A stretch of DNA of 15,370 nt from a virus (IMGVR_UViG_2751185972_000002), one strand, 5' to 3'; counted from the stretch's first letter, positions 706 to 15,370 are shown. Numbers and translations: made by a program. Notes: generated by a model from the letters alone, not told the origin.

Positions 706-709
706 ACCA

Positions 710-1021
710 ATGACGACTCCAACCAGACGGATAAGTTTCTATCTGAAGCCCACCGCCGTCAAGAACGAAGGAGAAGCATGCGCCTGGCTGGACAGCCTTA
801 CACCAGAAGCCCGCAAAAGCGGCCAACGCGTGGCTTTTCTGGCCGGGCTGGCACTTCTGAAAATGAATCCGGCAGAGGCTTATCGACTGGCTGCATGGGC
901 TGGTGATGAAGCGTTATCAGTGACACAAACCAGGACAGAACGCCCCGCATCACAGCCAGTATCAACCGCACAGATAACCAGTCAGATGGCCGGAAATATC
1001 CGGGCGTTATTTCCTGAATAA
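710..1021 (+). CDS. parR: ParR-like ribbon-helix-helix DNA-binding protein (partition adaptor-like), 103 aa
   Basis: RBS AAGGAG 8 nt upstream of ATG 710, 4 nt after the parM-like stop. N-terminal residues RRISFYLKP...AWLDSLTPEARKSGQRVAFLAGLAL resemble R1 ParR (RRTIAFKLNP...CDTLDSIPQGERS...AALTAGLAL) by recall. Position directly downstream of parM matches parMR operon order. The track ORF 575..1021 is an upstream extension overlapping parM. Confidence 0.6.
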   Translation: MTTPTRRISFYLKPTAVKNEGEACAWLDSLTPEARKSGQRVAFLAGLALLKMNPAEAYRLAAWAGDEALSVTQTRTERPASQPVSTAQITSQMAGNIRALFPE

Positions 1022-1029
1022 CACAACAT

Positions 1030-1047
1030 CAGGGCGAGTTCGCCCTG
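1030..1047. repeat. GC-rich palindrome CAGGGCGA-gt-TCGCCCTG (hairpin) 38 bp upstream of ORF 1085
   Basis: Arms 1030-1037 and 1040-1047 are perfect reverse complements. The same arm sequence recurs at 1688-1713. No T-tract follows. Confidence 0.6.
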
Positions 1048-1084
1048 CTCTCCACCTCAGAACATAAACAAGGAGAACGACTTA

Positions 1085-1675
1085 ATGAGCGAAATCAACT
1101 ATCAGGCATTACGTGAACGTTATTCACCTGTGCCAGTACCGAAATGCCCTATTTGCGGCGAGGAAATGTCAATTCAGCGAATATCTGGAGCACAGGTTGT
1201 TTATGCCTGCTCCGGTTATGGTGATGATGGAGATTTCAAAATTGGCCGAACTCTTGCTGACGAACATTATGAAAAATCACGCGTAACAGTGTTGGATGTC
1301 GGGGATCCTGAAGTATTGGCGCTACTTGATTGGCTGGAAACCAAAGACAACCGAATCGCTGAACTGGAAAAAATCGCCACTGACTATGCACTTAAATTCC
1401 AGAAAGCACAGGACGCATTAAAGCATGCCGCTTTGCTGCATAGCAGGACGGCGCAACAAACAAATAATTTTGCAGTATCGCTTCCGGACATAAGCGAATA
1501 TTTCATTAATGACGTATTTCAGCCCTTGCGATACGAGCGGGATGTTGAAAGAGCCATCATAAAGGCTGGCGGAAAAGCATTGTGGCAGGAGAAACACGAG
1601 GACAGAACGCATCAGTCATGCGATGTAAATTGTGGATGGTTTAGCCCACTGACGACAGATAAAAATAACACCTGA
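1085..1675 (+). CDS. hypothetical protein, 196 aa; N-terminal CPICG Cys motif plus predicted coiled coil; possible ead/Ea22-like relative
   Basis: Strong RBS AAGGAG 7 nt upstream of ATG 1085; clean 196-codon ORF. Visibly more AT-rich than neighbours. N-terminus (xINYQALRE) and LALLDWLE coiled-coil segment recall the ead/Ea22-like family of lambdoid prophages; this assignment is tentative and unsearched. Confidence 0.65.
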   Translation: MSEINYQALRERYSPVPVPKCPICGEEMSIQRISGAQVVYACSGYGDDGDFKIGRTLADEHYEKSRVTVLDVGDPEVLALLDWLETKDNRIAELEKIATDYALKFQKAQDALKHAALLHSRTAQQTNNFAVSLPDISEYFINDVFQPLRYERDVERAIIKAGGKALWQEKHEDRTHQSCDVNCGWFSPLTTDKNNT

Positions 1676-1687
1676 TCCCCCTCAAAC

Positions 1688-1713
1688 CAGGGCGATAATC
1701 GCACATCGCCCTG
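1688..1713. repeat. GC-rich palindrome CAGGGCGAT-(8 nt)-ATCGCCCTG 13 bp downstream of ORF 1085..1675
   Basis: Arms 1688-1696 and 1705-1713 are perfect reverse complements and share the CAGGGCGA/TCGCCCTG core with the hairpin at 1030-1047. Possible terminator or cassette boundary; no T-tract follows. Confidence 0.6.
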
Positions 1714-1714
1714 C

Positions 1715-1741
1715 TGCACAATAGTGCACAAATTTGCACAA
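1715..1741. repeat. Three direct TGCACAA heptamers spaced exactly 10 bp apart (1715, 1725, 1735); a fourth copy at 1807-1813
   Basis: Read directly: TGCACAAtagTGCACAAattTGCACAAttttttt. Helical-phase spacing suggests a protein-binding array (operator, iteron or centromere-like). Confidence 0.55.
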
Positions 1742-2112
1742 TTTTTTTGAACGAATTTTTGCCCTTCCAGCCCGCGTGGCGGCTGGATCCGTCAAGGATC
1801 CGTGCGTGCACAAAAAAACGCGCTTTTTCTGCGCGCAGGTGACGGGGGAACAGCCCGCGTTTCAGGGGGTAAATAGCGTTCCCTTAACGATGTCGCAGCG
1901 ACACGACAGAATGGCCGTATTTCTCACGCTGAGCGTGAAAAATACGTGAGGGATTCTGATTTGATGGGGTGAAAGGTAAGGCCGTCAAAATCGCACTGAG
2001 GCGGCGAGAACATGCAGTCAACGCGGTGGGATTGCGTAAGAGTCTGACCGTCGATGGTGGCGATAAACTGGAAGGCGTCGTGAAATTATCTGACTGATAC
2101 AGGAGCTGGAGA

Positions 2113-2141
2113 GTCGGGGCATAAATTTTTTATGCCCCGGC
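2113..2141. repeat. Perfect 11-bp inverted repeat CGGGGCATAAA-ttt-TTTATGCCCCG between convergent accessory genes and Q
   Basis: Arms 2115-2125 and 2129-2139 are exact reverse complements. Lies about 25 bp beyond the Q stop. May be a bidirectional terminator-like hairpin, but no flanking U-tract on either strand. Confidence 0.45.
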
Positions 2142-2165
2142 GAAGCAGCAGACAAGCGAAGCGCG

Positions 2166-3212
2166 TCAGGATGTGGGCTGGATGTCTAACAGTGCGTAAG
2201 GGTTAAAGCGGATCACCTCTTCGCCAAGCCAGTCATTGATGTGCTTCATGGCCTCCATGACGGGCATCAGCTCGTTAATTGCGTAAACCCGCGCGGCCTT
2301 CTCCACATCACCAAACGCACTTTTTTCACCCGGCATCGCCCCCATCAGTTGCGGCGGAACGCGGTGCGCAGCCAGCACATCATCACGGGATGCCGCCTTA
2401 ACATTCATGAACTCATCCTTTGCGGTGATCTGCTGGAACGGCAAAATTTGCACCCCCTCTTTGCCCCCGTTGGGCGCATGAATGAGCACGTTTTTAAACG
2501 CACCACCACCACGCGCACCCTGTAGCGTTTCTTTCAGGGAGTCCATGCTTTCGCGGTTTACCTGCGCGGCACCGATGTAGATGATGCACCCGGCGTGGGA
2601 TCCGTTGTCGTAATACAGTTTTCTGAACATGTCCGCCGAATGAGACAGGCTGGCCGAGAGTAATGCGCCGAGATATTCCGGCATGCCGTAGATTTCCTGG
2701 TTAATGTCAGGATTCATCAGGTGACACACTTTGCCTGGGCGAAACTGAAACGCATCCTTGCCATCCTGCACATACCTCCATGATTCAAGATCGCTTCCGC
2801 GTCGCATGTATTTCGCCAGGGCGTGCCGTAATTTAAGCGGTTCGCCGAGCATATTGCTTCGAAGCTCAAGGAATGCGTTACCGAACACAAACCAGTCCAG
2901 CGCCAGCGCCGAGAAATCCTGCCGGGAAAGCAGCGGGTGCGGGATGTAGCAACCGAGCAATACATTGCGCTTAAAATAAAGCGCAGACTGATGCCAGGAC
3001 GTTTGCCGGGCAGCTCTTGCCAGACCGTACCAGTCCACCGGGGTTTCATACCACCGCCCGTTATCAGCACAGTACATATTGTCCAGCAGGTCATGCCCGG
3101 TCAGGCGATAAGGACCATCAAATGTGAATGCACTGAGCGATGATTCTTTCCTGAGCGCATCAGCGAGATCAATGCGTGAACTCATGCGCACTTTTTTATT
3201 TTTTCTGCTCAT
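2166..3212 (-). CDS. Q: portal protein (P2 gpQ-like), 348 aa
   Basis: Length matches P2 Q (344 aa by recall). Immediately downstream of, and overlapping by 1 nt (TGATG), the terminase gene, as in the P2 P-Q operon. RBS GGAG 7 nt upstream of ATG at 3212. Confidence 0.88.
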   Translation of the reverse strand: MSRKNKKVRMSSRIDLADALRKESSLSAFTFDGPYRLTGHDLLDNMYCADNGRWYETPVDWYGLARAARQTSWHQSALYFKRNVLLGCYIPHPLLSRQDFSALALDWFVFGNAFLELRSNMLGEPLKLRHALAKYMRRGSDLESWRYVQDGKDAFQFRPGKVCHLMNPDINQEIYGMPEYLGALLSASLSHSADMFRKLYYDNGSHAGCIIYIGAAQVNRESMDSLKETLQGARGGGAFKNVLIHAPNGGKEGVQILPFQQITAKDEFMNVKAASRDDVLAAHRVPPQLMGAMPGEKSAFGDVEKAARVYAINELMPVMEAMKHINDWLGEEVIRFNPYALLDIQPTS

Positions 3213-4963
3213 CAGAACTCCATAACCGTGAAACGCTCGTTTTCTCCTTCGCCGCCAATCGGTTCGTTAATGACAGCAAGCATGGTTGCCCACGCAAGGT
3301 CGCCGTGGCTGATCCCCCTCGCTCGGTCCGTTTCGTAAGTGATAAAGCCGCCCGGTGTTTTCACCTTACGCACGGCGTTAAAGGCCGCGACCAGCTCGCG
3401 TTCGGCGCGATCGTATTCCCACCGCCCGGCACGCATTATTTGCAGCATTTTCAGTACCAGCGACCGTTTTGATGACAGCGTGAAGGTGTACGGAATAGCG
3501 GCAGGGAAAAACCGTTTCACTATCTGATAAACAGCCTCCCCGTTCCCGCCCGTCACATCAATGCCGATGTGTTCCACGTTGTAGCGACACGTGAACTCTT
3601 CAATGACTCTGGCCTGTTCTTCAAACTCCAGCCCCTGAACGCGTCGCGTCTCCACCGTTCGAAAACGGCCACCAGGAACAGACGGAGGAACCACCACGGA
3701 CACAGCGCCGCTGTCGCCGTTGCCACTGCTGCCGTTTGCGTCATACCCAATCCATACCGGACGATTCCCCATCGGGCGGGGAGCAAAAGGTTTCCAGTCT
3801 TTCCAGTCGTCGTATCCGTCAACGCCGCAGCCAATCAGGATATTCAGGTTAAATGCCGATTCCCCTTCGCGGACAAACTCACACATATAGAGATTGAGGA
3901 ACTCGTCTTCGGTGTTTTCATCACGAATTTCGTCGATATCGGTGTGTTTCCAGCCGTGATTAACCACATCTTCCAGCGTGACAATTTGCCGCCACGTCCG
4001 GTCAGGGCAGATAAGCCCGTTATGCAGCGTTTTCCAGTCCACAGAAAAACGCTGGCGTTTATGCGAGGCCTTTTTCTCGTTCCAGCGGTCGCCGTTCCAG
4101 TAGGCGTATGCCTCGTGCGTTTCGGTGGATGGCGTGGAGAAGTAGGTGCGCCGCAGTCCGCTGAGGGTTGCCATAGCGCCAGCCACCTTGCGCAGTTCAG
4201 CAAAGCGACTGACCCAGAAAAATTCATCAAAATAAAAATTGCCCGTATAGGACTGTGCCGACGCAGCAGAAGTGCCGAGAAAATGCAGCTCTGCGCCGTT
4301 GGAGAGGATGATTTTATCGCCCCCTTTCAGCTCCACATCAACTTCAGCCGCGGCCTTCTGAATAATGCTTTTAAACTGGAACGCCTGACGACGCGACGCA
4401 GACAAAAAAATCTGGTTACGCTGGTAAGGTTGCGCCACATCGTCACGCAGCGCCATCAGCAGTGCTTCCTGTGCAAAATACCAGGTCGCCCCAATCTGTC
4501 GGGATTTCAGGATCATCCTGTTACGTATCCCGGCTTCCCTGCAAAGGGTCAGGGAGTCAAACCAGCCCCGCTGATGCCACTCCAGCCTGCTGATGATTTT
4601 TTCCCGCAGTGCGGCAATCTGTTCCGGCGTGAAATGATTTTTGAGTTTTTTCGCCCGGCCTTTCTTTCCTGCGGCCATCACATCCGGCTGGCCATCATGC
4701 AGCTTTTTAAGCTGCCGGGTCAGCAGGTCTATTTCCTTAAAGTCACCGCCTGTTTTATTCTGTTTTTCAGTAAGCTGGATGAGGCGCGCATCGATGGACT
4801 GCGTGACACGCTGCCCGGGTGGCGTTTCATCCCACTGGTCACGTTTTTTCCACGCATAAATCGTGTTCGGGTTTATTCCCATCAGACGTGATATTTCTGC
4901 GGGCGGATAACCCTGCCAGTAAAGTTGCCGCGCACGCTGGCGCACAAAAGCGTCCTGAATCAT
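3212..4963 (-). CDS. P: terminase large (ATPase) subunit (P2 gpP-like), 583 aa
   Basis: 583 aa vs P2 P 590 aa. N-terminal helix-turn-helix-like segment (YWQGYPPAEISRLMGINPNTIYAWKKR) typical of P2-family terminase ATPase. RBS GGGGGAG 5 nt upstream of ATG at 4963. Divergent from O as in P2. Confidence 0.9.
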   Translation of the reverse strand: MIQDAFVRQRARQLYWQGYPPAEISRLMGINPNTIYAWKKRDQWDETPPGQRVTQSIDARLIQLTEKQNKTGGDFKEIDLLTRQLKKLHDGQPDVMAAGKKGRAKKLKNHFTPEQIAALREKIISRLEWHQRGWFDSLTLCREAGIRNRMILKSRQIGATWYFAQEALLMALRDDVAQPYQRNQIFLSASRRQAFQFKSIIQKAAAEVDVELKGGDKIILSNGAELHFLGTSAASAQSYTGNFYFDEFFWVSRFAELRKVAGAMATLSGLRRTYFSTPSTETHEAYAYWNGDRWNEKKASHKRQRFSVDWKTLHNGLICPDRTWRQIVTLEDVVNHGWKHTDIDEIRDENTEDEFLNLYMCEFVREGESAFNLNILIGCGVDGYDDWKDWKPFAPRPMGNRPVWIGYDANGSSGNGDSGAVSVVVPPSVPGGRFRTVETRRVQGLEFEEQARVIEEFTCRYNVEHIGIDVTGGNGEAVYQIVKRFFPAAIPYTFTLSSKRSLVLKMLQIMRAGRWEYDRAERELVAAFNAVRKVKTPGGFITYETDRARGISHGDLAWATMLAVINEPIGGEGENERFTVMEF

Positions 4964-5117
4964 TGCTCCCCCTGAGTAATTACAGGAAGATTACCCGCGC
5001 GCGAAACTGTTCTCCTTAACCCTCTGTTCTGGCCGTTTTCTTACAACAAAAGCCCTTTGTATCAGCCTGTTACGCTTTGCCATCATGACTGAAGAACCAG
5101 TCAGAGGGGCAAAAACT
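4964..5117. promoter_or_regulatory. Divergent late promoter region between P and O (expected Ogr-type activator-dependent promoters)
   Basis: 154-bp gap between divergently transcribed P and O. In P2 this gap carries the late promoters activated by Ogr; that is established knowledge, not read from this sequence. The only symmetric element I see is an imperfect dyad ACAAA-agccc-TTTGT at 5046-5060. No clear sigma70 -35/-10, consistent with activator dependence. Confidence 0.35.
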
Positions 5118-5954
5118 ATGGCTAATGAAAAAAAGACATCCCGCAAAAAGTTTCGCGTGGCTGTCTCCGGATCAACTGTTGATGGCCGTGAAATCAGTCC
5201 GGTGCATCTGCGTGAAGCCGCCGAGAACTTCAACCCGGATGTTTACGCTGCCCGCGTGAACGTTGAGCACTATCTCTCGCCATGCCCGTCAAGCGAATTT
5301 TCCGCAATGGGCGATGTCACCGCACTGAGTACGGAAGAGATTACGGAAGGTCCGCTGGCCGGACGTACTGCGCTGTATGCAGAAATCGAACCGACCGAGC
5401 GCATGAAGCAGCTTGTTGCGGACGGCAAGAAAATCTATTCCAGTATCGAACTGCACCCGCAGTTCTCCGTTAACGGGCGCGCCTATCTGGTCGGGCTGGC
5501 GATGACCGACACCCCGGCAAGCCTGGGCACTGAGCGCCTGAAATTCACGGCACAGCAACGTCAGGCGGTGATGACGTTTAACAGTATCCAGGGTGAAGCG
5601 CCGCTTATCTCCGAAGCCATCGAGTCTGAAATCATCGAAATGGCAGAACAACGCCAGGAAGAAGGCACCCAGTGGTTTAACCGCGTAATGGGGATTATTG
5701 GCCGTGGCCGCAAAGCGGATGACGCCAGTTTTTCCCGTATTCAGGAAGCGGTGGAAGGCGTCGCAACGTCACAGGCCGACATTATCGACCGTTTTAATGT
5801 GCTGGAAACCCGCCATCAGCAGGACCGCCAGAAAATTACGTCACTGACCACAGAGCTGGCAGCACTGAAGGAAAAACTGCGCACGCAGGACGGCGATCCG
5901 CAGAACCGCTTCACCGCAACGGGCGCAGCCTCCGACCAGCTGGCCGACTTCTGA
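5118..5954 (+). CDS. O: capsid scaffolding protein (P2 gpO-like), 278 aa
   Basis: Start set to ATG 5118 (MANEKK...; RBS AGAGGGG upstream) rather than the track start 5085. Sequence KKFRVAVSGSTVDGREIS...YLVGLAMTDTPASLGTE parallels P2 gpO (FFRIGVEGDTCDGRVIS...YLVGLAVTDDPASLGTE, recall). P2 O is 284 aa. Confidence 0.88.
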   Translation: MANEKKTSRKKFRVAVSGSTVDGREISPVHLREAAENFNPDVYAARVNVEHYLSPCPSSEFSAMGDVTALSTEEITEGPLAGRTALYAEIEPTERMKQLVADGKKIYSSIELHPQFSVNGRAYLVGLAMTDTPASLGTERLKFTAQQRQAVMTFNSIQGEAPLISEAIESEIIEMAEQRQEEGTQWFNRVMGIIGRGRKADDASFSRIQEAVEGVATSQADIIDRFNVLETRHQQDRQKITSLTTELAALKEKLRTQDGDPQNRFTATGAASDQLADF

Positions 5955-5977
5955 TTAGACAAAGGAGCAAATTTTTT

Positions 5978-7029
5978 ATGAATCTGGTGATGTCAGATAT
6001 TACCCGCAACAAGCTGGGTTGCTATATGGCGCAGCAGGTGTCGCTTAATAATATCCCGGTATCTGCACTGGTGTCGCGATTTACCGTGGAACCCGCGGTG
6101 CAGCAGCGTTTTGAAAACGCCTCAAAGGAAAGTACCGAATTTACGAAAAAAATAACGTGATCGGCGTGACCGACCAGAAAGGCGAAAAAATCCTCCTGGA
6201 TACCACAGGACCGATTGCGCGCACGAATACCAGTTATGACGGCACAAAACGCCGTAACCCGAATAACGTGGTTGATCTGAAAAACCGCAAATATCAGTGT
6301 GAACAGGTGAACTACGACACGTTTATTTCGTATCCGCAGCTTGATGCCTGGTCGGCACACCCTGATTTTCAGTCCCGCATCAGCGCACAGATTGCCCGAC
6401 AGGTGGCGCTTGACCGCATCATGATCGGTTTCAACGGCACGTCTCACGCGGATGAGTCCAACTTCAGCACCAACAAGCTGCTTCAGGACGTTAACGTGGG
6501 CTGGCTGGAGCACATCAGAACCGACGCCAGCGAACGCGTTATGAATGACGTGACGCTGACCTCCCGCAACATGGACAACACCGTGGCGCACGCGGGTAAG
6601 TATGCGAACGCTGATGCACTGGTACAGGACGCGCGTTCATCCCTGCTGGATGAATGGCACAAGGAAGCTGACGACCTCGTGGTGATTATGGGGCGCAACC
6701 TGTTTAACTCGCTGCGTCTGCCCGTGCTGAACAGCATCAGCGGCCAGAATCCCAATGCGGAATTACTCGCCGGGCAGCTCATCCTGTCATCGCGCACCAT
6801 TGGCGGGCTGGGCGTGTTCCTTGCGCCGTTCTTCCCGGATGCAACGATGCTGATCACCTCGTTCAACAACCTGTCGATTTACTGGCAGAAAGGTTCAATG
6901 CGTCGCCTGATGAAAGACGAGCCGGAATACAACCGCATCGCCACCTACCAGTCCATCAATGACGCTTATGTCGTTGAAGACTATGGCAAGTGCGCGATGG
7001 TTACTGGCCTGAAGTTCGCCGACAGCTAA
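5978..7029 (+). pseudogene. N: major capsid protein (P2 gpN-like) with a 1-nt frameshift at the A7 run 6146-6152
   Basis: ORF 5978..6160 (60 aa; RBS AAGGAG; contains RFTVEPAV like P2 N KFTVEPSV) stops at TGA 6158-6160. ORF 6157..7029 (290 aa) continues the P2 N homology (KGEKI, MIGFNGT, VGWL, DLVVIMGR, LSIYW, DYVVEDY). Combined length ~350 aa vs P2 N 357 aa. Restoring one base at or next to the A7 tract gives a continuous ...EFTKKINVIGVTDQ... frame. Confidence 0.8.
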
Positions 7030-7038
7030 TCAACTCAC

Positions 7039-7057
7039 GGCGGGCATCATGCCCGCC
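7039..7057 (+). other. GC-rich hairpin GGCGGGCA-tca-TGCCCGCC directly after the capsid gene stop
   Basis: Perfect 8-bp arms at 7039-7046 and 7050-7057, 10 nt after the N stop and 18 nt before the M start. No U-tract, so more likely an mRNA-stability or attenuation element than a full terminator. Confidence 0.4.
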
Positions 7058-7074
7058 TGTAACGGAGAGCAAAA

Positions 7075-7875
7075 ATGATTACTCCTGCACAACAACACTG
7101 GCAGAACGTGATGGCACAGCGCGCAGGCCGGGCGAATGAAGGCGTGGACCACGCCGCGCGTACCGCGCATGAAGAGGTGCTGTATCGTCTGCGTCTGGCA
7201 CAGGCCCGGCTTAAGGGCGTACAGGCCAGAAGCGCGAAAGCCGCCATCAAAAAAGAGTTGTTGCCGGATTTTTCCGGCTGGATTGAGGGAACGCTGGAGG
7301 CTGACGGCGGGCAGCAGGATGAAGTGATTGCCACGCTGATGGTGTGGGCGATTGACTGTGGCGATCTTCCGCTTGCGCTGCGTATCGGCGCGTATGTAGT
7401 CCGTCACAACCTCATCATGCCGGATAACTTTGGCCGTACTGCTGCCACGGTACTGACCGAAGAAATCTGTAATCCGGTACTGACGCAGGCCGGGACGGAT
7501 GCCGACGCGGATTTGTCCGCCTTTATCGAACCACTGGACACCCTCCGGGAGATTGTCACCGACCAGGACATGCCGGACGAAGTGCGCGCCAAATTATGCA
7601 AAGCGTGCGCCTTTGCCCGCCGTGGCCTGAGTGATGCGGACAGCATGGCCCTGTCACTGAAGCTGCTGCGCGAAGCAATGCACCTGAACCCGAACGCAGG
7701 TGTGAAACGCGAGATTGCAACCCTTTCCCGCGCCCTGAAAAAAGCCGATTCCGCAGCCGAACCAGAAGACGCCAGCGCACAGCAGGCGCAGGACGAAAGC
7801 AGCAAAAGTAAAAAGACAACGCGGAAGCCTGCAACACGAAAAACCACCGCGACGCAGAAGGCGAAGCGCGGTTAA
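7075..7875 (+). CDS. M: terminase small (endonuclease) subunit (P2 gpM-like), 266 aa
   Basis: RBS GGAGA 6 nt upstream. Sequence KKELLPDF, DMPDEVRAKL and the basic K/R-rich C-terminal tail match P2 gpM (KKRELLPFW, DMPDEVRAKL; recall). P2 M is 247 aa. Confidence 0.88.
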   Translation: MITPAQQHWQNVMAQRAGRANEGVDHAARTAHEEVLYRLRLAQARLKGVQARSAKAAIKKELLPDFSGWIEGTLEADGGQQDEVIATLMVWAIDCGDLPLALRIGAYVVRHNLIMPDNFGRTAATVLTEEICNPVLTQAGTDADADLSAFIEPLDTLREIVTDQDMPDEVRAKLCKACAFARRGLSDADSMALSLKLLREAMHLNPNAGVKREIATLSRALKKADSAAEPEDASAQQAQDESSKSKKTTRKPATRKTTATQKAKRG

Positions 7876-7891
7876 CGACTGACCCCGTCAG

Positions 7892-7964
7892 CGGGCGGCG
7901 TGCGCGGTGTTCCAGTTTGACTCCGTGACCGTTTACACCGCGCACCCACCGCCCGATTTTTTTT
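7892..7964 (+). terminator. Long imperfect GC-rich inverted repeat followed by a T8 tract, immediately upstream of L
   Basis: Left arm 7892-7909 (CGGGCGGCGTGCGCGGTG) pairs with right arm 7936-7955 (CACCGCGCACCCACCGCCCG); 10-bp and 5-bp helices with a small internal bulge and a 26-nt loop, followed by TTTTTTTT at 7957-7964. Terminator or attenuator-like, but the loop is atypically long. Confidence 0.35.
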
Positions 7965-7978
7965 CAGGAGTGAACCCC

Positions 7979-8473
7979 ATGACTATAGTTGCCAGAACTG
8001 AACCCGGACCCGCAGAGGACGACATCACCGATACCGATGATGGCGATACCCGCATTTCAGCGGGTGCATTCTGGCCGGATATTGTGCTGCGCGAGCTGCG
8101 TCTGGCGGTACGACTGCCGGGGCGCGTGACCACCTCCCGCCTGCTGCATACTGCCACCGGGGCTGTGGCACACGTTACCCGCGAGCTGGAAGCATGGCAG
8201 CAGGAACAGCAGGCAGCTGGCCATCAGACGCTGGCCGATGTTCCGGCACCCGTAATTAACGGAGAAAGCGTCAATCTCTGGCACTGGCGCAATGCTGTTT
8301 ATACCGCCACGCGCGCCCTGATTCTGGAGCGTTATCGTGATGCAGACACTACGGACAAGGGCGACCGCCGGGCAGACGCTCTGGATATACAGACATCGGA
8401 TTTGTGGCGTGATGTGAGCTGGGCCATCTCTGACATTCTGTGCCGCCCGCGAATCTTTGCGGAGTTGTGCTGA
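7979..8473 (+). CDS. L: head completion/stabilization protein (P2 gpL-like), 164 aa
   Basis: Start set to ATG 7979 (RBS CAGGAG upstream); the track start 7907 lies inside the inverted repeat. Sequence DVPAPVINGESV...LERYRDADTTDKGDRRADALD...DLWRD parallels P2 gpL (recall). P2 L is 169 aa. Confidence 0.85.
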   Translation: MTIVARTEPGPAEDDITDTDDGDTRISAGAFWPDIVLRELRLAVRLPGRVTTSRLLHTATGAVAHVTRELEAWQQEQQAAGHQTLADVPAPVINGESVNLWHWRNAVYTATRALILERYRDADTTDKGDRRADALDIQTSDLWRDVSWAISDILCRPRIFAELC

Positions 8474-8673
8474 TGAAAGTGAAGGCACTGGAAGGCGACA
8501 CCGTGGATTCGCTCTGTTTCCGGTACTACGGCACGACGCAGGGCGTCACCGAAAAGGTGCTGGATGCCAACCCCGGACTCTGTCAGCAGGTATTTCTGGA
8601 CGCCGGGCAGGAAGTGGAGATGCCGGAGCCGGAGAAGAAGAAACGAGAAATGATTCAGTTGTGGGGGGAGTAG
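8473..8673 (+). CDS. X: tail protein X (P2 gpX-like, LysM-like fold), 66 aa
   Basis: ATG 8473 overlaps the L stop (TGATG). MKVKALEGDTVDSLCFRYYGTTQGVTEKVLDANPGL resembles P2 gpX (MKTFALQGDTLDAICVRYYGRTEGVVETVLAANPGL; recall). P2 X is 67 aa. Confidence 0.82.
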   Translation: MKVKALEGDTVDSLCFRYYGTTQGVTEKVLDANPGLCQQVFLDAGQEVEMPEPEKKKREMIQLWGE

Positions 8674-8675
8674 CA

Positions 8676-8999
8676 GTGAGCACCATTCAAACAGGGATCA
8701 CAGAGCAGGTTATTGCGTGGCTCTTTGACCACCTGCCAACGGTGTATGCAGTAGGCGCGGCGGTCAGCATTTCCGCGCTGATGAGCCTTTATGACGGACG
8801 AACACTGGTTCAGACCGTAACGGGATCGCTGGCGTGCGGCGTTCTTGCCATGGCCGTGGCCGGGTCGTTGCGCTTCTTCGGGTTTCCTGAAGATGCCGTG
8901 ACGTTTATCGGCGCATCAATCGGTTTTATGGGTGCAGAGAAAGCACGCGACAAGGTTATTGCGGCCTTTAATCGCAGGGTGAAGGAGAAGGACGAATGA
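8676..8999 (+). CDS. holin (putative), ~107 aa with hydrophobic transmembrane segments
   Basis: GTG 8676 is preceded by RBS GGGGGGAG and sits 2 nt after the X stop. Product has hydrophobic stretches (AVGAAVSISALM, LACGVLAMAVAGSL) and a charged C-terminus. Position between X and the endolysin matches P2 gene Y. The track ORF 8457..8999 is an in-frame upstream extension overlapping X. Confidence 0.65.
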   Translation: MSTIQTGITEQVIAWLFDHLPTVYAVGAAVSISALMSLYDGRTLVQTVTGSLACGVLAMAVAGSLRFFGFPEDAVTFIGASIGFMGAEKARDKVIAAFNRRVKEKDE

Positions 9000-9388
9000 G
9001 CAACACATTTAAATTCAGCAGCCGGAGCGAAAAGAATTTGCAGGGTGTAAATCCTGATCTGGTGAAAGTGACCCGACGGGCACTGGAAATCTCGGAAGTG
9101 GATTTTGGTATCACCGAAGGGTTGCGCAGCCGTTACCGCCAGAAGCAACTGGTGGCCACGGGTAAGAGCCAGACCATGAACAGCCGCCACCTTACGGGGC
9201 ATGCCGTGGATGTTGTGGCTTATATCGGCAGCCAGATGTCATGGGAATGGCCGCTGTACGAAAAAATCGCAGCAGCATTCAGACAGGCCAGCCGGGAACT
9301 GAATATTCCGGTGGAATGGGGCGGCGACTGGAAGACCCTGAAAGACGGACCGCATTTTCAGTTACCACACGGAGCCTATCCGGCATGA
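8996..9388 (+). CDS. endolysin, peptidase M15 family (L-Ala-D-Glu or D-Ala-D-Ala peptidase-like), 130 aa
   Basis: ATG 8996 overlaps the holin stop (ATGA). Zinc-ligand pattern of the M15 / VanY-like fold: SRHLTGHAVD (H...D) and DGPHFQL (H). Position downstream of the holin. Confidence 0.8.
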   Translation: MSNTFKFSSRSEKNLQGVNPDLVKVTRRALEISEVDFGITEGLRSRYRQKQLVATGKSQTMNSRHLTGHAVDVVAYIGSQMSWEWPLYEKIAAAFRQASRELNIPVEWGGDWKTLKDGPHFQLPHGAYPA

Positions 9389-9792
9389 AGCTCTGGCCCA
9401 CGCTTGGCGTCGCTTTCCTTCTGACTGCCGGATGGGGAACATCCATGCGTCTGTCGTGGTCGCTGGGCCGGGAGAACGCCAGAAACGAAGCGCAGGCCAG
9501 CACCCTGAAAAGTACCGCCGACACCCTGAATATCATCAGCGCCGGGGTACAGGATATGCAGCAGGTGCTGGCGCAACTCCGCGTGGAAAATCAGCAACGC
9601 AATCAGGACGGAGAGGTAAGACGTGAACAGCTACGCAACGATATTGCAAAAGATGAATGCGCCCACGCTTTGCCTGACGCTCGTTTTACTGACAGGCTGC
9701 GCAGGCACGCAGAACGCGCCACTGCCAGCGCCGTCAGTCCGGCTTATACCGCAGACGCTGACCATACCGGTAACGCCTCCCCCCTTCCCTGA
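9385..9792 (+). CDS. lysB: i-spanin (Rz / P2 LysB-like inner-membrane spanin), ~135 aa
   Basis: ATG 9385 overlaps the endolysin stop (ATGA). N-terminal transmembrane segment (LWPTLGVAFLLTAGW), then a charged coiled-coil-like region. An o-spanin gene is embedded in its 3' part. The track ORF 9241..9792 is an upstream extension. Confidence 0.7.
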   Translation: MKLWPTLGVAFLLTAGWGTSMRLSWSLGRENARNEAQASTLKSTADTLNIISAGVQDMQQVLAQLRVENQQRNQDGEVRREQLRNDIAKDECAHALPDARFTDRLRRHAERATASAVSPAYTADADHTGNASPLP

Positions 9793-9943
9793 CACTCCCA
9801 CATGGGGAAATCTCGGTATATGGGGCGACCGCCTTCTGGATGCACTGGAAACCTGTAACGCGGATAAACGGGCCATTGAATTACTGGAACAGCGCAGGCT
9901 GCAACGACTGAACAACGAGGATAACAACCATGCTGAAAACTGA
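9623..9943 (+). CDS. lysC: o-spanin (Rz1 / P2 LysC-like outer-membrane lipoprotein), overlapping the i-spanin in another frame
   Basis: Lipoprotein signal with lipobox LLTGC, followed by a proline-rich segment (PLPAPSVRLIPQTLTIPVTPPPFPDTP). GTG 9623 has RBS GGAGAGG 6 nt upstream; ATG 9653 is an alternative start. Begins inside the i-spanin gene and extends beyond it, as for P2 lysB/lysC. Confidence 0.65.
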   Translation: MNSYATILQKMNAPTLCLTLVLLTGCAGTQNAPLPAPSVRLIPQTLTIPVTPPPFPDTPTWGNLGIWGDRLLDALETCNADKRAIELLEQRRLQRLNNEDNNHAEN

Positions 9944-10397
9944 TTCCCTGCGTGAAGCCATGACCCGTTCATGCCGATGGTGTCAGGCTAACCCGGAAAA
10001 ATTCACCATTTTCGTGGAGAGCGGCAACATTGAAACGACCGGAGAAACCCCATCGTTTGTTTACCGCTATCAGATGGTGATGTTTGTCATGGATTACGCC
10101 GGGGAGCTGGACGACCTCACGCTGCCGCTGCTGGCGTGGTTATCCGAAAATCAGCCACAGTTGTTGCTCAACCCTGAGCGTAATCAGGACATCAAATTTT
10201 CCGCCGTTATCAATGACGATGACAGCGCCGATCTCCTGTTTACGCTCCCCCTGCGGGAACGCGTTCGCATCACGCGCAGCAGTCAGGGCACACCGCAGGC
10301 AGAACACCTGCTGGAGCCAAAACCCCGCCTGCCATCTTCCGAAGGCGACTGGTCGCATGTATTCCAGGATGTGACGTGGGGTGAAAGCGATGGATAA
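9930..10397 (+). CDS. R: tail completion protein (P2 gpR-like), 155 aa
   Basis: RBS GAGGA 8 nt upstream. 155 aa, the same as P2 R by recall. N-terminus MLKTDSLREAM and LPLLAWLSENQP resemble P2 gpR (MLKPDSLRRAL, VPVLAWLRENQP; recall, moderate certainty). Position between the lysis genes and S. Confidence 0.8.
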   Translation: MLKTDSLREAMTRSCRWCQANPEKFTIFVESGNIETTGETPSFVYRYQMVMFVMDYAGELDDLTLPLLAWLSENQPQLLLNPERNQDIKFSAVINDDDSADLLFTLPLRERVRITRSSQGTPQAEHLLEPKPRLPSSEGDWSHVFQDVTWGESDG

Positions 10398-11025
10398 GGC
10401 ATTCACTCGCGTGGATGAAACCTTTGAGGCCATCCGCGACAGCCTGAATCAGCAGGCCATCAATAACATCGCCAGAAAGCTGGCACAGGATTTACGCCGC
10501 GCCCAGCAGGCACGTATCCGGCCACAGAAAGCGCCGGACGGGACCGCATGGACACCACGCAGACGCCACGTAACCCGGATACAGGAGCGCATTCGCTTTA
10601 TCTGGAATAACGAAGCACGCACGCTGAAAAACTGGCATCACGACACGGGGAAATACGGGCGAACCATCACCGGGTGGGATGAGGATAAAAACAGCATCCG
10701 CACGTTTTACCGGGATGACATCGACCGCTTTCTGGAAATACGCACCCGGCGCATCAACCAGGACAGCACAAAGCGCGTCCCCATGTTCGTAAAACTGCGC
10801 ACCGCCCGCTACCTGAAAGCCCGTGCAGATGCTTCCGGTGTGACGGTGGGTTACAGCGGCGTGGCCGCACGTATTGCACGCGTTCATCAGTTCGGTGAGC
10901 GCGATCAGGTTGCGCCGGGCATTTTCACCGATTACCCGGTACGTGAGCTGCTGGGTATCAGCCAGGCAGATGAGCGTCTGATTTATAACACGGTGCTGGG
11001 CCGGATTGCGGAGGCTGTACGGTGA
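10390..11025 (+). CDS. S: phage virion morphogenesis / tail completion protein (P2 gpS-like), ~211 aa
   Basis: ATG 10390 overlaps the R stop (GTG 10381 is an alternative start). C-terminal VHQFGERD...LLGISQADE matches the gpS-family HQFG motif. Longer than P2 S (about 150 aa by recall). Confidence 0.78.
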   Translation: MDKAFTRVDETFEAIRDSLNQQAINNIARKLAQDLRRAQQARIRPQKAPDGTAWTPRRRHVTRIQERIRFIWNNEARTLKNWHHDTGKYGRTITGWDEDKNSIRTFYRDDIDRFLEIRTRRINQDSTKRVPMFVKLRTARYLKARADASGVTVGYSGVAARIARVHQFGERDQVAPGIFTDYPVRELLGISQADERLIYNTVLGRIAEAVR

Positions 11026-11603
11026 GCGCAGAACTCATGCGGCTACTGAGCAATATCATCCGCACCGGGATCATCTCTGAAGTTGATGAGAAGTCCTGGC
11101 GCGTGCGCGTTCGCAGCGGCGAACTGGAAACAGGTTGGCTGCGCTGGAACACCTCTCGCGCGGGAGCCTTCAATGTGTGGCTGCCGCCATCACCAGGCGA
11201 ACAGGTGGTAATTGCCTGCATTGGCGGCAACCCGGAAACCGCCATGATAATTGGCAGCCTGTGGAGTGATGCCATTCCGGCCCCCGGCAAAAGCCTGAAA
11301 GAAATCGTGGTCAGCGCGCCGGATGGCGCGGTGTTCCGCTACGACGCGGACGCAGGCGCACTGAGCGCCAGCGGCATGAAAACAGCCACCCTGCAGGCAT
11401 CCGTCAGCGTGACACTGGATACGCCCGTCGTGGAATGCACAGACCTTCTGAGAACGGCGACGCTTGACGTCACAAAAGGGGGAAAGATGAGCGGCAATAT
11501 CACGCACAGCGGCGGCAATTTCACCTCAAACGGCATCACAGTGCATACGCATAAACACGGTGGCGTTAAAGGTGGCAGCGATTCGACAGGAGGCCCGCAG
11601 TGA
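11022..11603 (+). CDS. V: baseplate spike / assembly protein V (P2 gpV-like), 193 aa
   Basis: GTG 11022 with RBS GGAGG 7 nt upstream, overlapping the S stop (GTGA). IRTGII, PSPGEQVVIA, SGMKTA, LDTPVVECT, KGGKMSGNITHSGGNFTSNGITVHTHKH all parallel P2 gpV (recall). Confidence 0.85.
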   Translation: MSAELMRLLSNIIRTGIISEVDEKSWRVRVRSGELETGWLRWNTSRAGAFNVWLPPSPGEQVVIACIGGNPETAMIIGSLWSDAIPAPGKSLKEIVVSAPDGAVFRYDADAGALSASGMKTATLQASVSVTLDTPVVECTDLLRTATLDVTKGGKMSGNITHSGGNFTSNGITVHTHKHGGVKGGSDSTGGPQ

Positions 11604-11950
11604 CAACCCGCTACACAGGAATGAACCCGGACGGAACGGGAAACCTGAACGATATGGAGCACCTGAAACAGTCAGTCAGGGACATCCTGACCACCCCGCT
11701 GGCAAGCCGGGTTATGCGACGGGAATATGGCAGCCTTGTGCCTGATTTGATTGACGAACCCATGAATAACACCACGCGTCTGCAATGCATGAGTGCTGCC
11801 GTGATTGCGCTGACACGATGGGAACCCCGCATTGCCCTGGACGCTATCGACGTTGTCTGGAAGGCAGGAGGCCGCGCCGGGGTGACGCTGTCGGGCACTG
11901 TCATGCAGACCATGCAGAATGTTGAATTAACCATCACGCTGAGGGAGTAA
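11600..11950 (+). CDS. W: baseplate wedge protein W (P2 gpW-like), 116 aa
   Basis: GTG 11600 with RBS AGGAGG 5 nt upstream, overlapping the V stop. MTTRYTGMN...SRVMRREYGSL...WEPRI parallels P2 gpW (MTARYLGMN...SRVMRRDYGSL...WEPRV; recall). P2 W is 115 aa. Confidence 0.85.
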   Translation: MTTRYTGMNPDGTGNLNDMEHLKQSVRDILTTPLASRVMRREYGSLVPDLIDEPMNNTTRLQCMSAAVIALTRWEPRIALDAIDVVWKAGGRAGVTLSGTVMQTMQNVELTITLRE

Positions 11951-11953
11951 ATC

Positions 11954-12850
11954 ATGCCTGCCGTTGACCTTTCACAGTTACCGGAACCCGCCATCATCGC
12001 GGAGCCTGACTTTGAGGCAATTCTGGCTGACACAAAGGCCATGATGATTGCGTCCTATCCCGCCGAACAGCGTGAAGCCGTTTCCGCCGCGCTGGAGCTG
12101 GAATCGGAACCCCTTAACGTTATCGCTCAAACCATGTCGTTTCGTGAAATGCTGTTACGCCAGCGGGTCAATGAGGGTGCACGCGCCTGCATGCTAAGCC
12201 ACAGCGCCGGGACAGACCTGGACAACCTCGCGGGCAATATGAACACAAAGCGCCTGGTTATCACTCCGGCAACGGATACCACCGATGCAGTGATGGAAAG
12301 TGACACCTCGCTGAGACTACGGGCGCAACGGGCATATGACGGTCTGAGTGTTGCTGGCCCGTCAGGTGCATACGAGTATTTTGCACGCAGCGCCAGCGGT
12401 CTGGTACGCGATGCGCGGGCCATCAGCCCGTCTCCGGCCAACGTGACGGTTTCCATCCTGTCCACTGAGGGCGACGGCACAGCAACGGAGGCGTTGCTTA
12501 ATACCGTTCGCGCCGTTCTGAATGCAGAGGATACCCGCCCGGTGGCCGACCGCCTGACCGTACAGAGTGCCAGAATCGTGACATGGCGGCTGAATGCAAA
12601 ACTGTACTTTTACCCCGGCCCGGAATCCGAACCTATTCTGGCCGCGGCTGAATCGTCGTTCAGGAAGTGGCTGGCTGAGCAGGGGCTTATCGGTCAGGAC
12701 GTGGCGTTGTCCGCCATTGCTGCCGCACTGCATGTGCACGGTGTGCAACGCGTGGAGATAATCGAACCCACACAGAATATGGCCATCAGCGACATACAGG
12801 CGGCGCGCTGTGAGTCATTCACCATCAGCGAAGGTGGACGCAATGAGTAA
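11954..12850 (+). CDS. J: baseplate assembly protein J (P2 gpJ-like), 298 aa
   Basis: RBS GAGGGAG upstream. MPAVDLSQLPEP..., ESEPL, RPVADRLTVQSA, YPGPESEPI, LHVHGVQRVE closely parallel P2 gpJ (recall). P2 J is 302 aa. Confidence 0.9.
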   Translation: MPAVDLSQLPEPAIIAEPDFEAILADTKAMMIASYPAEQREAVSAALELESEPLNVIAQTMSFREMLLRQRVNEGARACMLSHSAGTDLDNLAGNMNTKRLVITPATDTTDAVMESDTSLRLRAQRAYDGLSVAGPSGAYEYFARSASGLVRDARAISPSPANVTVSILSTEGDGTATEALLNTVRAVLNAEDTRPVADRLTVQSARIVTWRLNAKLYFYPGPESEPILAAAESSFRKWLAEQGLIGQDVALSAIAAALHVHGVQRVEIIEPTQNMAISDIQAARCESFTISEGGRNE

Positions 12851-13373
12851 TTCGTTGTTACCACCATCAGCCAGCAATTTCATGCGTTGTGCCGAAGCCG
12901 TCGGAACACGCATTACAGACATTCCGGTAGACCTCAACACGCTGTGGTCGCCGGACACCTGCCCGGTGCATCTGCTGCCTTATCTCGCCTGGGCGTTTTC
13001 CGTTGACCGCTGGGATCGCAACTGGCCGGAAGAGACAAAGCGACAGGTTATTCGTGATGCATGGCTGATACACCGACACAAAGGGACCATCAGCGCACTG
13101 CGCCGGGCCATTGAGCCGCTGGGATACCTCATTCGCGTGTCTGAGTGGTGGGAGTTCGGCGGAGAACCGGGAACATTTACCGTTGAAGTCGGCACGCTGG
13201 ACAGTGGCGTGACGGAGGAAATGTATCTGGAAATGGAGCGGTTGATTGCTGATGCCCGCCCGGTCAGCCGCCACATGACAGGGCTGAATATCATTCAGGA
13301 AATTCCGGGGGATATTTTCGCAGCGGCGGCAACTTATGACGGTGAAGTTATTACCATTTATCCAGGCGATTAA
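12843..13373 (+). CDS. I: baseplate / tail formation protein I (P2 gpI-like), 176 aa
   Basis: Start set to ATG 12843, overlapping the J stop by 8 nt; this gives 176 aa, equal to P2 I. The track start 12810 is an in-frame upstream extension inside J. Confidence 0.82.
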   Translation: MSNSLLPPSASNFMRCAEAVGTRITDIPVDLNTLWSPDTCPVHLLPYLAWAFSVDRWDRNWPEETKRQVIRDAWLIHRHKGTISALRRAIEPLGYLIRVSEWWEFGGEPGTFTVEVGTLDSGVTEEMYLEMERLIADARPVSRHMTGLNIIQEIPGDIFAAAATYDGEVITIYPGD

Positions 13374-13375
13374 GC

Positions 13376-15043
13376 ATGAGTACCACAACACGAAAATTTA
13401 AAACCATTATCACCGATACGGGTGCAAAAAAATTAGCTCAGGTAGCCGCGCCAGATGGTAAGCCTGTCCGCCTGACTCATATGGCCGTGGGCGACGGTGG
13501 CGGCACGTTGCCCACACCAGACAGTAAGCAGACCCGTCTGGTGCATGAGGTGTGGCGACATACTGTTAATCGCGTCATCCTGGACGCAACACATCAGAAC
13601 CGCATTATTGCGGAGCTGGTTATTCCTCCTGAAACGGGCGGATTCTGGATCCGGGAAATTGGTGTATTTGATGAGCACGGCGATTTAATCGCGGTGGGAA
13701 ATACTGCCGAAAGTTACAAGCCAGCCGTTGCCGAAGGGTCCGGTCGTGCACAAACATTTCGCACCATTCTGACCGTATCCAGCACTGCCACCGTGGCGCT
13801 TACCGTGGACAACACCATGGTGATGGCCACAGTGGATTACGTGGATGACAAACTGAAAGAGCATGAACAGTCACGACGTCACCCGGACGCCTCGCTGACC
13901 GCAAAAGGCTTTGTTCAACTCAGTAGCGCCACTAACAGCGTGTCTGAAACGCAGGCTGCAACACCGAAAGCAGTAAAGGCCGCGTATGATCTTGCTAACG
14001 GTAAATATACTGCGCAGGATGCCAGCACGACGCGAAAAGGCCTTGTCCAGCTCAGTAGCGCCACCAACAGCACGTCTGAAACGCAGGCTGCAACGCCGAA
14101 AGCAGTAAAGGCCGCGTATGACCTTGCTAACGCAAAATATACCGCTCAGGACGCCACGACGGCACAAAAAGGGATAGTCCAGCTCAGTAGTGCCACCAAC
14201 AGCACGTCTGAAACACTGGCCGCGACATCGAAAGCGGTTAAGGCGGTAATGGATGAAACGAACAAGAAAGCGCCCTTAAACAGTCCTGCGCTGACCGGAA
14301 CGCCAACAACGCCAGCTGCGCGACAGGGAACGAATAATACCCAAATCGCAAGCACGGCTTTCGTTATGGCTGCGATTGCCGCCCTTGTAGATTCGTCACC
14401 TGACGCACTGAATACGCTGAACGAGTTAGCGGCGGCGCTGGGAAACGCCCCGAATTTTGCGACCACCATGACTAACGCGCTTGCGGGTAAGCAACCGAAA
14501 GATGCCACCCTGACGGCGCTGGCCGGGCTTGCTACTGCGGCAGACAGGTTTCCGTATTTTACGGGGAATGATGTCGCCAGCCTGGCAACCCTGACAAAAG
14601 TCGGGCGGGATATTCTTGCGAAATCGACCGTTGCTGCCGTTATCGAATACCTCGGTTTACAGGAAACGGTAAACAGGGCTGGTAACGCCGTGCAAAAAAA
14701 TGGCGATACCTTGTCCGGTGGGCTTACTTTTGAAAATGACTCAATCCTTGCCTGGATTCGAAATACTGACTGGGCGAAGATTGGATTTAAAAATGATGCC
14801 GATGGTGACACTGATTCATACATGTGGTTTGAAACAGGCGACAACGGCAATGAATATTTCAAATGGAGAAGCCGCCAGAGCACCACAACAAAAGACCTGA
14901 TGACGCTGAAATGGGATGCACTAAATATTCTTGTTAATGCTGTCATTAATGGCAGTCTTGGAGTTGGTTCGACGAATGCGTTAGGTGGTAGCTCTGAACC
15001 GCCCCGGGAATCCTGGAGACTAAACTTCCTGAGAAAGAGGTAA
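13376..15043 (+). CDS. H: tail fiber protein (P2 gpH-like), 3' end replaced by an IS insertion; last 16 codons are IS-derived
   Basis: Near-identity by recall to P2 gpH over N-terminal and central regions ([58 protein letters not shown]..., [15 protein letters not shown]). Homology ends at about aa 540 of the 669 expected for P2 H, where the IS left end begins at 14995. The ORF then reads through the IS terminus to TAA 15041-15043. Confidence 0.85.
13904..14250 (+). repeat. In-frame 132-bp (44-aa) tandem repeat within the tail fiber gene, about 2.6 copies
   Basis: Units start at 13904, 14036 and 14168, exact 132-nt period, encoding [45 protein letters not shown]. The third copy diverges after KAVKAV. 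Typical phage tail-fibre repeat. Confidence 0.8.
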
Positions 15044-15370
15044 ACAGGATGACTAAAAATACTCGTTTTTCCCCCGAAGTCCGTCAGAGGGCGATTCGTA
15101 TGGTTCTGGAAAGTCAGGGCGAATATGACTCACAGTGGGCGGCAATTTGTTCCATTGCCCCAAAGATTGGCTGTACACCGGAGACTCTGCGTGTCTGGGT
15201 ACGCCAGCATGAGCGGGATACCGGAGGCGGTGATGGCGGGCTCACCACCGCTGAACGTCAGCGTCTGAAAGAGCTGGAACGTGAAAATTGTGAACTGCGC
15301 CGCAGTAACGATATCCTTCGCCAGGCTTCCGCTTATTTTGCGAAGGCGGAGTTCGACCGCCTCTGGAAAA
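14995..15370 (+). mobile_element. IS3-family insertion sequence (IS629/IS1203-like), left end; continues beyond the window
   Basis: Terminus begins TGAACCGCCCCGGG (IS3-family TGA... end) at 14995, exactly where P2 H homology stops. OrfA starts 54 nt inside. OrfA sequence matches IS629-group transposase OrfA by recall. Confidence 0.8.
15049..15370 (+). CDS. IS3-family transposase OrfA (helix-turn-helix / leucine-zipper subunit), 3' end cut by the window edge
   Basis: RBS AAGAGG upstream of ATG 15049. [107 protein letters not shown] matches IS629/IS1203 OrfA (recall). The window ends in the A-run where the IS3-family -1 frameshift site is expected. Confidence 0.88.

Follow-up and report, generated by a model that had tools for sequence, protein, structure and literature searches.

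An IS629-type insertion sequence in the invertible tail-fibre segment of a P2-like Shigella boydii prophage

Results

Tail-fibre gene H is cut at codon 540

The window, by which we mean the whole stretch of 15,370 nucleotides analysed here, belongs to a P2-like prophage whose host is Shigella boydii by the source names (Shigella boydii or S. flexneri for the members of its cluster). At its right end, tail-fibre gene H runs directly into the left part of an insertion sequence, IS (Table 1). The Pfam domains found in H residues 1–537 are an N-terminal Phage_tail_fib, three Phage_fiber_2 and the first 66 positions of Gp34_trimer, and the truncation point lies within this Gp34_trimer-like region. 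The tandem repeat that encodes the Phage_fiber_2 repeats is present in two or three copies in relatives. When positions 13376–15370 were compared with phage records by megablast, the fibre-gene matches came from Xuanwuvirus P88_4B11 (97.3% identity), Citrobacter phage Shae_phiSM, P2, Wphi, R18C and others. All of them end at query base 1620, that is at window position 14995, which sharpens an earlier estimate of a homology stop near residue 540 to exactly 540 codons. Codon 540 of H is TCT, and its third base is the first base of the IS. Homology to H does not continue in frame past this point; the reading frame instead adds 15 unrelated residues encoded by the IS terminus, giving a chimeric product of 555 amino acids (aa).

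Protein alignment with the 717-aa P88_4B11 protein and with relatives at 96–98% identity shows that the last 177 residues of H are absent here, in agreement with the preliminary description, in which the C-terminal part of the fibre was said to be separated or lost. Position 14995 as a mere natural end of homology is ruled out, since P2, Wphi, P88_4B11 and three near-identical prophages read through the site. What is read as a 555-aa "tail fibre" is the product of a pseudogene, and the fibre version of the present orientation would be non-functional; transcription into the IS is likely to be polar on downstream genes.

Table 1. Features at the right end of the window, with the evidence for each.
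Feature	Position	Strand	Evidence
H up to codon 540, where the IS cuts it (constant part and first 330 bp of the variable arm)	13376..14995	+	Pfam domains; DNA matches to H of P88_4B11, P2 and Wphi; protein alignment
Chimeric ORF: H residues 1–540 plus 15 residues encoded by the IS terminus, stop codon TAA at 15041–15043	13376..15043	+	ORF call; protein alignment
Tandem repeat with a 132-bp unit (2.6 copies) that codes for the Phage_fiber_2 repeats of H	13903..14244	+	Pfam; alignment
26-bp Gin/Cin/Hin-type crossover site TTATCGAATACC TC GGTTTACAGGAA, at the constant/variable boundary of H	14640..14665		Identical left site in L001, L003 and L005
Proximal part of the expressed variable arm ("A module"), from crossover site to IS	14666..14994	+	DNA and protein alignment
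CTC, predicted 3-bp target sequence	14992..14994		Empty site in L005 and L003; CAT duplication at the sister copy
Left 376 bp of a 1310-bp IS629-type element of the IS3 family, cut by the end of the contig and window	14995..15370	+	Matches to E. coli copies, to IS629/IS1203v and to the full-length copy L004
Left terminal inverted repeat TGAACCGCCCCGGGAATCCTGGAGA	14995..15019	+	23 of 25 positions match the right end of the full-length sister copy
orfA, N-terminal HTH transposase protein, 107 codons, open to the window end	15049..15370	+	PF01527, HTH_Tnp_1

The inserted element is of the IS629 type

The terminus of the element begins with TGAACCGCCCCGGG at position 14995. Of 5,426 complete E. 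coli genomes, 3,745 contain matches to the part in the window, at 24,155 places in all and with 95–99.7% identity (best match 99.7%); thousands of E. coli copies agree with it at 99.5–99.7%, and the matches are annotated as "IS3 family transposase" with an ALIL frameshift pseudoknot. Identity to copies in Stx phages annotated as IS629 or IS1203v is 95.7–97.3% over all 376 bp. Under the ISfinder convention, an element with more than 95% nucleotide identity to a named IS counts as an isoform of it, and 14995–15370 lies above this value relative to the annotated IS629/IS1203v copies. IS1203 and IS3411 are themselves counted as IS629 isoforms, and the sub-types of IS629 are 4–5% apart (PMC3271280).

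A full-length sister copy (locus L004) is 1310 bp long, differs from the window part at two positions and is flanked by a 3-bp duplication, CAT. Its right end reads ...GGTTCA, its terminal repeats, of the TG...CA type, agree at 23 of 25 positions, and its orfA and orfB are annotated with a programmed frameshift, OrfB matching rve, HTH_21 and rve_3. Alignment to this copy places the end of the window at the –1 frameshift site, within its A-run (CTGGAAAA...); an Rfam scan of the window returned no match, as expected for a truncated ALIL motif. Two substitutions are private relative to the closest full copy, namely 15027 T/C and 15289 C>T, the latter giving Arg81Cys in OrfA. The transposase OrfA proposed to follow the IS terminus is borne out by its PF01527 match, with its start moved from 15050 to 15049.

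Given the full-length sister copy, the identity to IS629/IS1203v, the PF01527 match of OrfA and the stop within the A-run, we assign the element to the IS629 type of the IS3 family, 376 of about 1310 bp being visible. Agreement of this order is far more than chance would produce. The original proposal of an IS3-family, IS629-like element in H thus stands: an exact left terminus at 14995 adjoins codon 540, identity to IS629/IS1203v is 96–97%, and a near-identical prophage has an empty site.

The insertion site is uninterrupted in near-identical prophages

That prophage, from S. boydii (L005, PSSS01000001.1), is 99.7–99.8% identical to the window over 1–5598 and 8971–14995 (99.77% over 8971–14995). 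It reads GGTAGCTC/TATTGTT across the site, or, in longer form, ...GGTGGTAGCTC/TATTGTTCTTGG..., where the slash marks the insertion point. A second prophage, in E. coli CFSAN051542 (L003), is likewise uninterrupted and shows 100% identity to the window in the 396 bp that precede the IS. Because both read through the site, we conclude that the two halves of H were contiguous in the ancestor and that the IS end was inserted after ...CTC. Target duplications of IS629 are 3–4 bp long and show no target specificity (PMC3271280). Given a 3-bp duplication as at the sister copy, the right junction is predicted to read GGTTCA-CTC-TATTGTT; spelled out, a simple right junction would consist of the IS end ...CCCGGGGCGGTTCA-CTC-TATTGTTCTTGG, in short form GGGGCGGTTCA-CTC-TATTGTT.

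The left junction recurs in independent contigs

Three draft contigs of 10–20 kb have an ORF call identical to the 555-aa product, and the junction recurs on at least three contigs and in at least two samples. One contig of S. boydii assembly GCA_001906265.1 (LPTF01000073.1) is 100% identical to window positions 3376–15288 and ends inside the IS, and in another S. boydii assembly a 100%-identical contig ends at 14993. The H–IS junction is absent from the set of 5,426 complete E. coli genomes, and an exact-junction scan of GTDB species representatives found no H–IS junction.

Could the join of H and IS be a chimera made at a repeat during assembly, with no IS in H at all? The contig does end in a multicopy repeat, and no complete genome of the E. 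coli set contains the junction. However, a de Bruijn assembler requires reads that span a junction, the same junction lies on three contigs from at least two samples, the other S. boydii assembly breaks at 14993, and the join falls exactly at the IS terminus. We therefore regard an artefact as extremely improbable.

The window stops within the IS because the draft contig ends there, short-read assemblies breaking in this multicopy repeat. The first 99 positions of the window are the right end of another IS3-family element, similar to IS911/ISEc52, so that the window comprises all the unique sequence lying between two IS copies in a short-read assembly.

The IS lies in the expressed arm of an invertible fibre segment

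In three related prophages (L001, L003 and L005), one site CCGTTATCGAATACCTCGGTTTACAGGAAACG lies inside H and one inverted partner lies just upstream of a serine invertase gene. The gene order in these relatives is H, a Caudo_TAP chaperone gene, an inverted chaperone gene, an inverted fibre gene lacking its 5' part and a Resolvase/HTH_7 recombinase gene. The crossover half-site TTCCTGTAAACC is, we take it, identical to Mu gix. Homology of the window to phages 520873 and 503458 ends at 14660, which fits the constant/variable boundary expected at the crossover site. Moreover, in about 90 Shigella draft contigs the encoded H is partial and exactly 424 aa long, and the four of these contigs that we inspected all end at the equivalent of window position 14647, inside the crossover site; such ends would be assembly forks arising from mixed orientations. 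A 440-aa H protein (P0122, L007) was considered as a representative of the flipped orientation and ruled out: its contig ends, 14 bp after the crossover site, in an IS terminal repeat, which we take to be that of IS26.

Since the insertion point is 330 bp downstream of the crossover site, the IS sits inside the invertible host-range segment, in the arm that is now fused to the constant part of H. The preliminary description had the downstream gene G displaced; at least the IS lies between H and its chaperone gene. The locus carries an invertible segment of the P88/Xuanwuvirus type rather than a plain P2 H–G pair. The prophage does not have the H–G arrangement without an invertible segment that characterizes phage P2 proper (Peduovirus). 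Its closest relatives, at 97–99.8% identity, are of the Xuanwuvirus/P88 type and have the invertase, whereas identity to P2 H is only 87%.

The predicted right junction was not recovered

One account of the right side is a simple, unaltered insertion, in which the IS right end is followed by CTC-TATTGTTCTTGG, with the 3' module of H, the chaperone gene, the alternative arm and the invertase gene just beyond; H would then be restored by precise excision of the IS. Two observations speak for it: near-identical prophages have the empty site, which implies that both halves were once contiguous, and a clean 3-bp duplication surrounds the sister copy. The extension past 15370 proposed in the preliminary description is impossible on this contig, which ends there; the distal segment of the locus was located on a separate contig, described below.

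Beyond 15370 we found no right IS junction, no CTC duplication and no adjoining remainder of H, and the junction-bearing contigs all end in the IS. We then searched for ORFs joining the IS right end, CTC and the remainder of H, built from three starts and three remainders (L003-type, L005-type frameshifted and L005-type repaired). Eight of these nine variants were absent from a collection of 15 billion proteins; the ninth, a 143-aa fragment from an internal start, was present only as E. coli fragments and is non-diagnostic. A homology search with the fusion protein gave no full-coverage match except an unrelated IS629/fibre junction in another strain (P0079, L014), so the same search was able to detect a junction of IS629 with a fibre gene. 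At that locus, IS629 lies in another fibre gene.

A second contig carries the distal segment and a hybrid junction

Homology searching with the predicted right-junction protein led, through P0002, to a 2,673-bp contig (LPTF01000298.1, hereafter L013) from GCA_001906265.1, the assembly that also contains the window-identical contig. From 267 to 2619, L013 is 99.5% identical to the L005 prophage, with the differences evenly spread. On it lie the 3' module of H, intact and free of the frameshift seen in L005, the chaperone gene followed by the inverted one, the alternative arm, which lacks the IS1 of L005, and the right crossover site. No invertase gene from this strain turned up. The contig closes with 79 nt that match the reverse complement of window positions 14582–14660 at 100% identity and are joined across a hybrid site; constant H and the alternative arm thereby share one reading frame, a 259-aa ORF that is still open where the contig stops. 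This content means that the distal segment is still in the genome and that flipped and unflipped junctions coexist. Most economically, the segment would still be inverting, with an intact alternative fibre version and an intact chaperone for it, as judged from the contig sequences; the presence of both orientations in one assembly could instead reflect two partial copies rather than active inversion. A further idea, that the contigs reading through the site mean that inversion is switched off in IS-bearing strains, was dropped, as the flipped junction occurs in the same assembly.

The left end of L013 has a different origin. Over nt 1–270 it agrees at 99.6% with a Mu-like prophage's fibre gene (seen in L015 and, in S. 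boydii, in L016); from nt 267 on the sequence is of the P2-like kind, and its identity to the Mu-like gene is only 80%. The switch occurs within a 4-nt microhomology, ATTG, that lies 1–4 nt from the IS insertion point, and the hybrid junction reads, from the Mu-like side, ...GGGGGGGAATTCA-ATTG-TTCTTGGTG. The IS right end is not at the start of L013. A search with the N-terminus of the Mu-like fibre for the contig to the left of L013 found no neighbour among the matches listed, which were full-length proteins, and one candidate (P0152) was set aside as it comes from a different assembly.

These observations bear in both directions on the unaltered insertion. A distal segment 99.5% identical to that of L005 in the same assembly supports it, and IEE-promoted excision of IS629 is documented (PMC9943667). 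Against it, the predicted simple right junction was found in no form, either among the nine ORFs or by homology search, and L013 runs from the Mu-like module into the 3' module of H without a break where an edge from IS629 to the 3' module would create a fork. We give this reading almost an even chance.

The alternative is that the IS marks a rearrangement breakpoint, at which a break at the right IS end was repaired from, or recombined with, the paralogous Mu-like fibre gene, leaving the 3' module of H behind a Mu-like module and the right IS end next to something else. Synthesis-dependent repair, break-induced copying or an inversion or duplication are possible routes. The change of affinity within L013 speaks for this, and a switch so close to the IS insertion point has an estimated chance of about 0.3% within a 2.1-kb gene. 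The presumed donor is at hand, S. boydii genomes carrying the Mu-like fibre gene, and microhomology-mediated end-joining linked to IEE is known at IS629 (PMC9943667). However, fibre genes have a natural module boundary at this very point, the start of the conserved SIVLGDNDTG motif, so that a chance coincidence is possible; the window contig retains the A module and the IS, which would require a mixed population or a duplication; and the contigs concerned are short and of draft quality. We give a rearrangement a chance somewhat below even.

The prophage carries other lesions

In the major capsid gene, one nucleotide is missing from an A-run (around 6145–6152), which splits the gene into ORFs of 60 and 290 aa. 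The deletion could be a sequencing error, though it is identical in a second assembly. The IS911-like element at the left edge truncates a ParM-like gene, of which only positions 119–157 of the StbA_N profile are left. Because of the capsid frameshift and this second IS, the prophage is probably already defective.

Related loci show lesions of their own. The L005 prophage has a 3.4-kb deletion, two IS1 copies (one in the alternative arm, the other near the tube gene) and a frameshift in H, and at L007 an IS, presumably IS26, lies in H 14 bp after the crossover site.

Discussion

Our analysis indicates that an IS629-type element very probably transposed into gene H of a P2-like prophage of the P88/Xuanwuvirus type in S. 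boydii, inside the invertible segment. It would have arrived by the copy-out/paste-in route of the IS3 family, making a 3-bp duplication of CTC. The insertion would abolish the fibre version of the present orientation by removing its distal receptor-binding, chaperone-dependent module, and it would separate H from its chaperone gene. The alternative arm, intact and with its own chaperone gene on the second contig of the same assembly, may be left usable after inversion. The preliminary description had host recognition inactivated; this applies to the expressed arm, but an alternative fibre tip is intact on L013, and the insertion would thus have knocked out one of two alternative tips rather than host recognition as a whole.

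The element itself shows no essential difference from IS629, IS1203 and IS3411 of Shigella sonnei and E. coli O157 and O111, apart from two private substitutions and the 376 bp visible here. It shares with them the terminus TGAACCGCCCCGGG and an HTH OrfA, and its sister copies show the A-run frameshift with the ALIL pseudoknot, the 1310-bp length and the 3-bp duplication. In O157, 62% of IS629 copies lie in prophages (PMC3271280), and the location found here matches this preference (PMC3271280).

The fibre locus resembles the G segment of Mu, the C segment of P1, the P region of e14 and the P2-like loci of EPEC in having a 26-bp crossover site inside the fibre gene. The likeness extends, in the relatives, to a pair of inverted arms with a chaperone gene for each and a serine invertase next to them. 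In contrast to these systems, the window holds only the left site and the proximal arm, and an IS in the expressed arm is a feature absent from the models. Invertible fibre loci have already been described in P2-like prophages of EPEC (PMC4272514).

Taken at face value, the insertion carries little weight, as IS629-type elements are common in prophage genes and Shigella genomes are full of genes broken by IS. The finding as stated is already known in kind: a well-known IS, in a typical prophage location, in a type of invertible P2-like fibre locus that has been described. Decay driven by IS is familiar from prophages and genes of Shigella and EHEC, with several IS in the same prophage lineage, and the present locus is a further instance that does not differ from it. 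The insertion would be a further step in the IS-driven prophage decay typical of Shigella and, in that process of erosion, one more neutral step. Given the other lesions, loss of the fibre is probably not the cause of the prophage defect. For annotation, our results identify a contig boundary caused by an IS and make P88/Xuanwuvirus-like, with an invertible host-range segment, the appropriate type for the prophage in place of plain P2.

The hybrid junction is the one point that could be of wider interest. Excision of IS629 promoted by IEE, with end joining at microhomologies (PMC9943667), could in this strain explain both a reversion of H and the junction on L013. We think it unlikely, but worth stating, that a break at the IS629 end in H was repaired with the paralogous fibre gene of a resident Mu-like prophage as template, producing a mosaic allele in which a Mu-like proximal part is joined to a P2-like receptor-binding module. 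Should the Mu-like/P2-like junction prove real and connected with the IS, it would offer a concrete case of IS-triggered exchange of receptor-binding modules between prophages, and it would mean that IS activity drives the shuffling of modules between the tail-fibre genes of unrelated prophages.

Edges of the window and interior genes

An IS3-family element resembling IS911/ISEc52 occupies the left edge of the window with its right end, and the window is therefore flanked by IS copies at both ends. The ParM/StbA-like gene cut by this element has its N-terminal domain reduced to the final ~40 positions. Plasmid-type partition genes are present within a P2-like prophage, in the interval from the ParM-like remnant to the portal gene (see the table). 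Compared with the closest full-length IS copy, a 1310-bp IS629-type sister element, the IS629-type copy at the right edge has 2 substitutions, at 15027 and 15289, the latter (C>T) replacing Arg81 of OrfA with Cys. Such private substitutions may be the reason that the contig reached 376 bp into a multicopy IS.

Features of the window outside the IS629-type copy
Feature	Window position	Remarks
IS911/ISEc52-like IS3-family element, right end	1-99	transposase stop at 89-91
ParM/StbA-like gene remnant (ORF)	85-705	truncated by IS911/ISEc52-like end
Plasmid_stab_B-like ORF (called in L005) and Ead/Ea22-like ORF	723-1021 region and 1085-1675	between ParM-like remnant and portal gene
Split major capsid gene	5978-6160 and 6157-7029	ORFs of 60 aa and 290 aa, split by the A-run deletion
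132-bp tandem repeat	13903-14244	2.6 copies, 85% matches; encodes Phage_fiber_2 repeats

Relative to six related phages, the major capsid gene, a member of the P2 gpN family, lacks 1 nt in an A-run at 6145-6152. A second assembly carries the identical deletion, which could mark a true pseudogene or come from an error in reading the homopolymer.

Variation and damage in the fibre genes

The number of fibre repeats is three in the window and in the related phage P88_4B11 and two in E. coli CFSAN051542, and fibre shaft length therefore differs with repeat number among these relatives. About 90 draft contigs from Shigella code for a partial H whose length is exactly 424 aa, and all four that were inspected (L009-L012) break off after the first 8 nt of the 26-bp crossover site of the invertible segment, equivalent to window position 14647. 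Contig ends within the crossover site look like assembly forks arising from mixed orientations of this segment.

Contig L013 (LPTF01000298.1), from an S. boydii assembly (GCA_001906265.1) that also includes a window-identical contig, is a hybrid: positions 1-270 are a Mu-like prophage fibre module, 99.6% identical to that of the Mu-like prophage L015, and positions 267-2673 are P2-like. The two parts meet at ATTG, where the Mu-like module passes into the P2-like H 3' module, and the IS629 insertion site is 1-4 nt away from this breakpoint. At the opposite end of L013, the alternative arm is fused to constant H in frame, the flipped orientation. The chaperone gene start in L013 has an additional A at 810 relative to the related prophages L001, L003, and L005, and its gene call is moved to an upstream start (187 aa vs 175 aa).

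The fibre genes of this prophage group have been struck repeatedly, each time independently, as seen in three further loci. In L005 (S. boydii PSSS01000001.1), the alternative arm carries IS1 and H is frameshifted by G5>G4, the same prophage having a 3.4-kb deletion that corresponds to window 5599-8970. L007 (ERR3638208) has an IS26-like end 14 bp past the crossover site, and in L014 (GCA_025827375.1) it is a different fibre gene that carries an IS629 right end.
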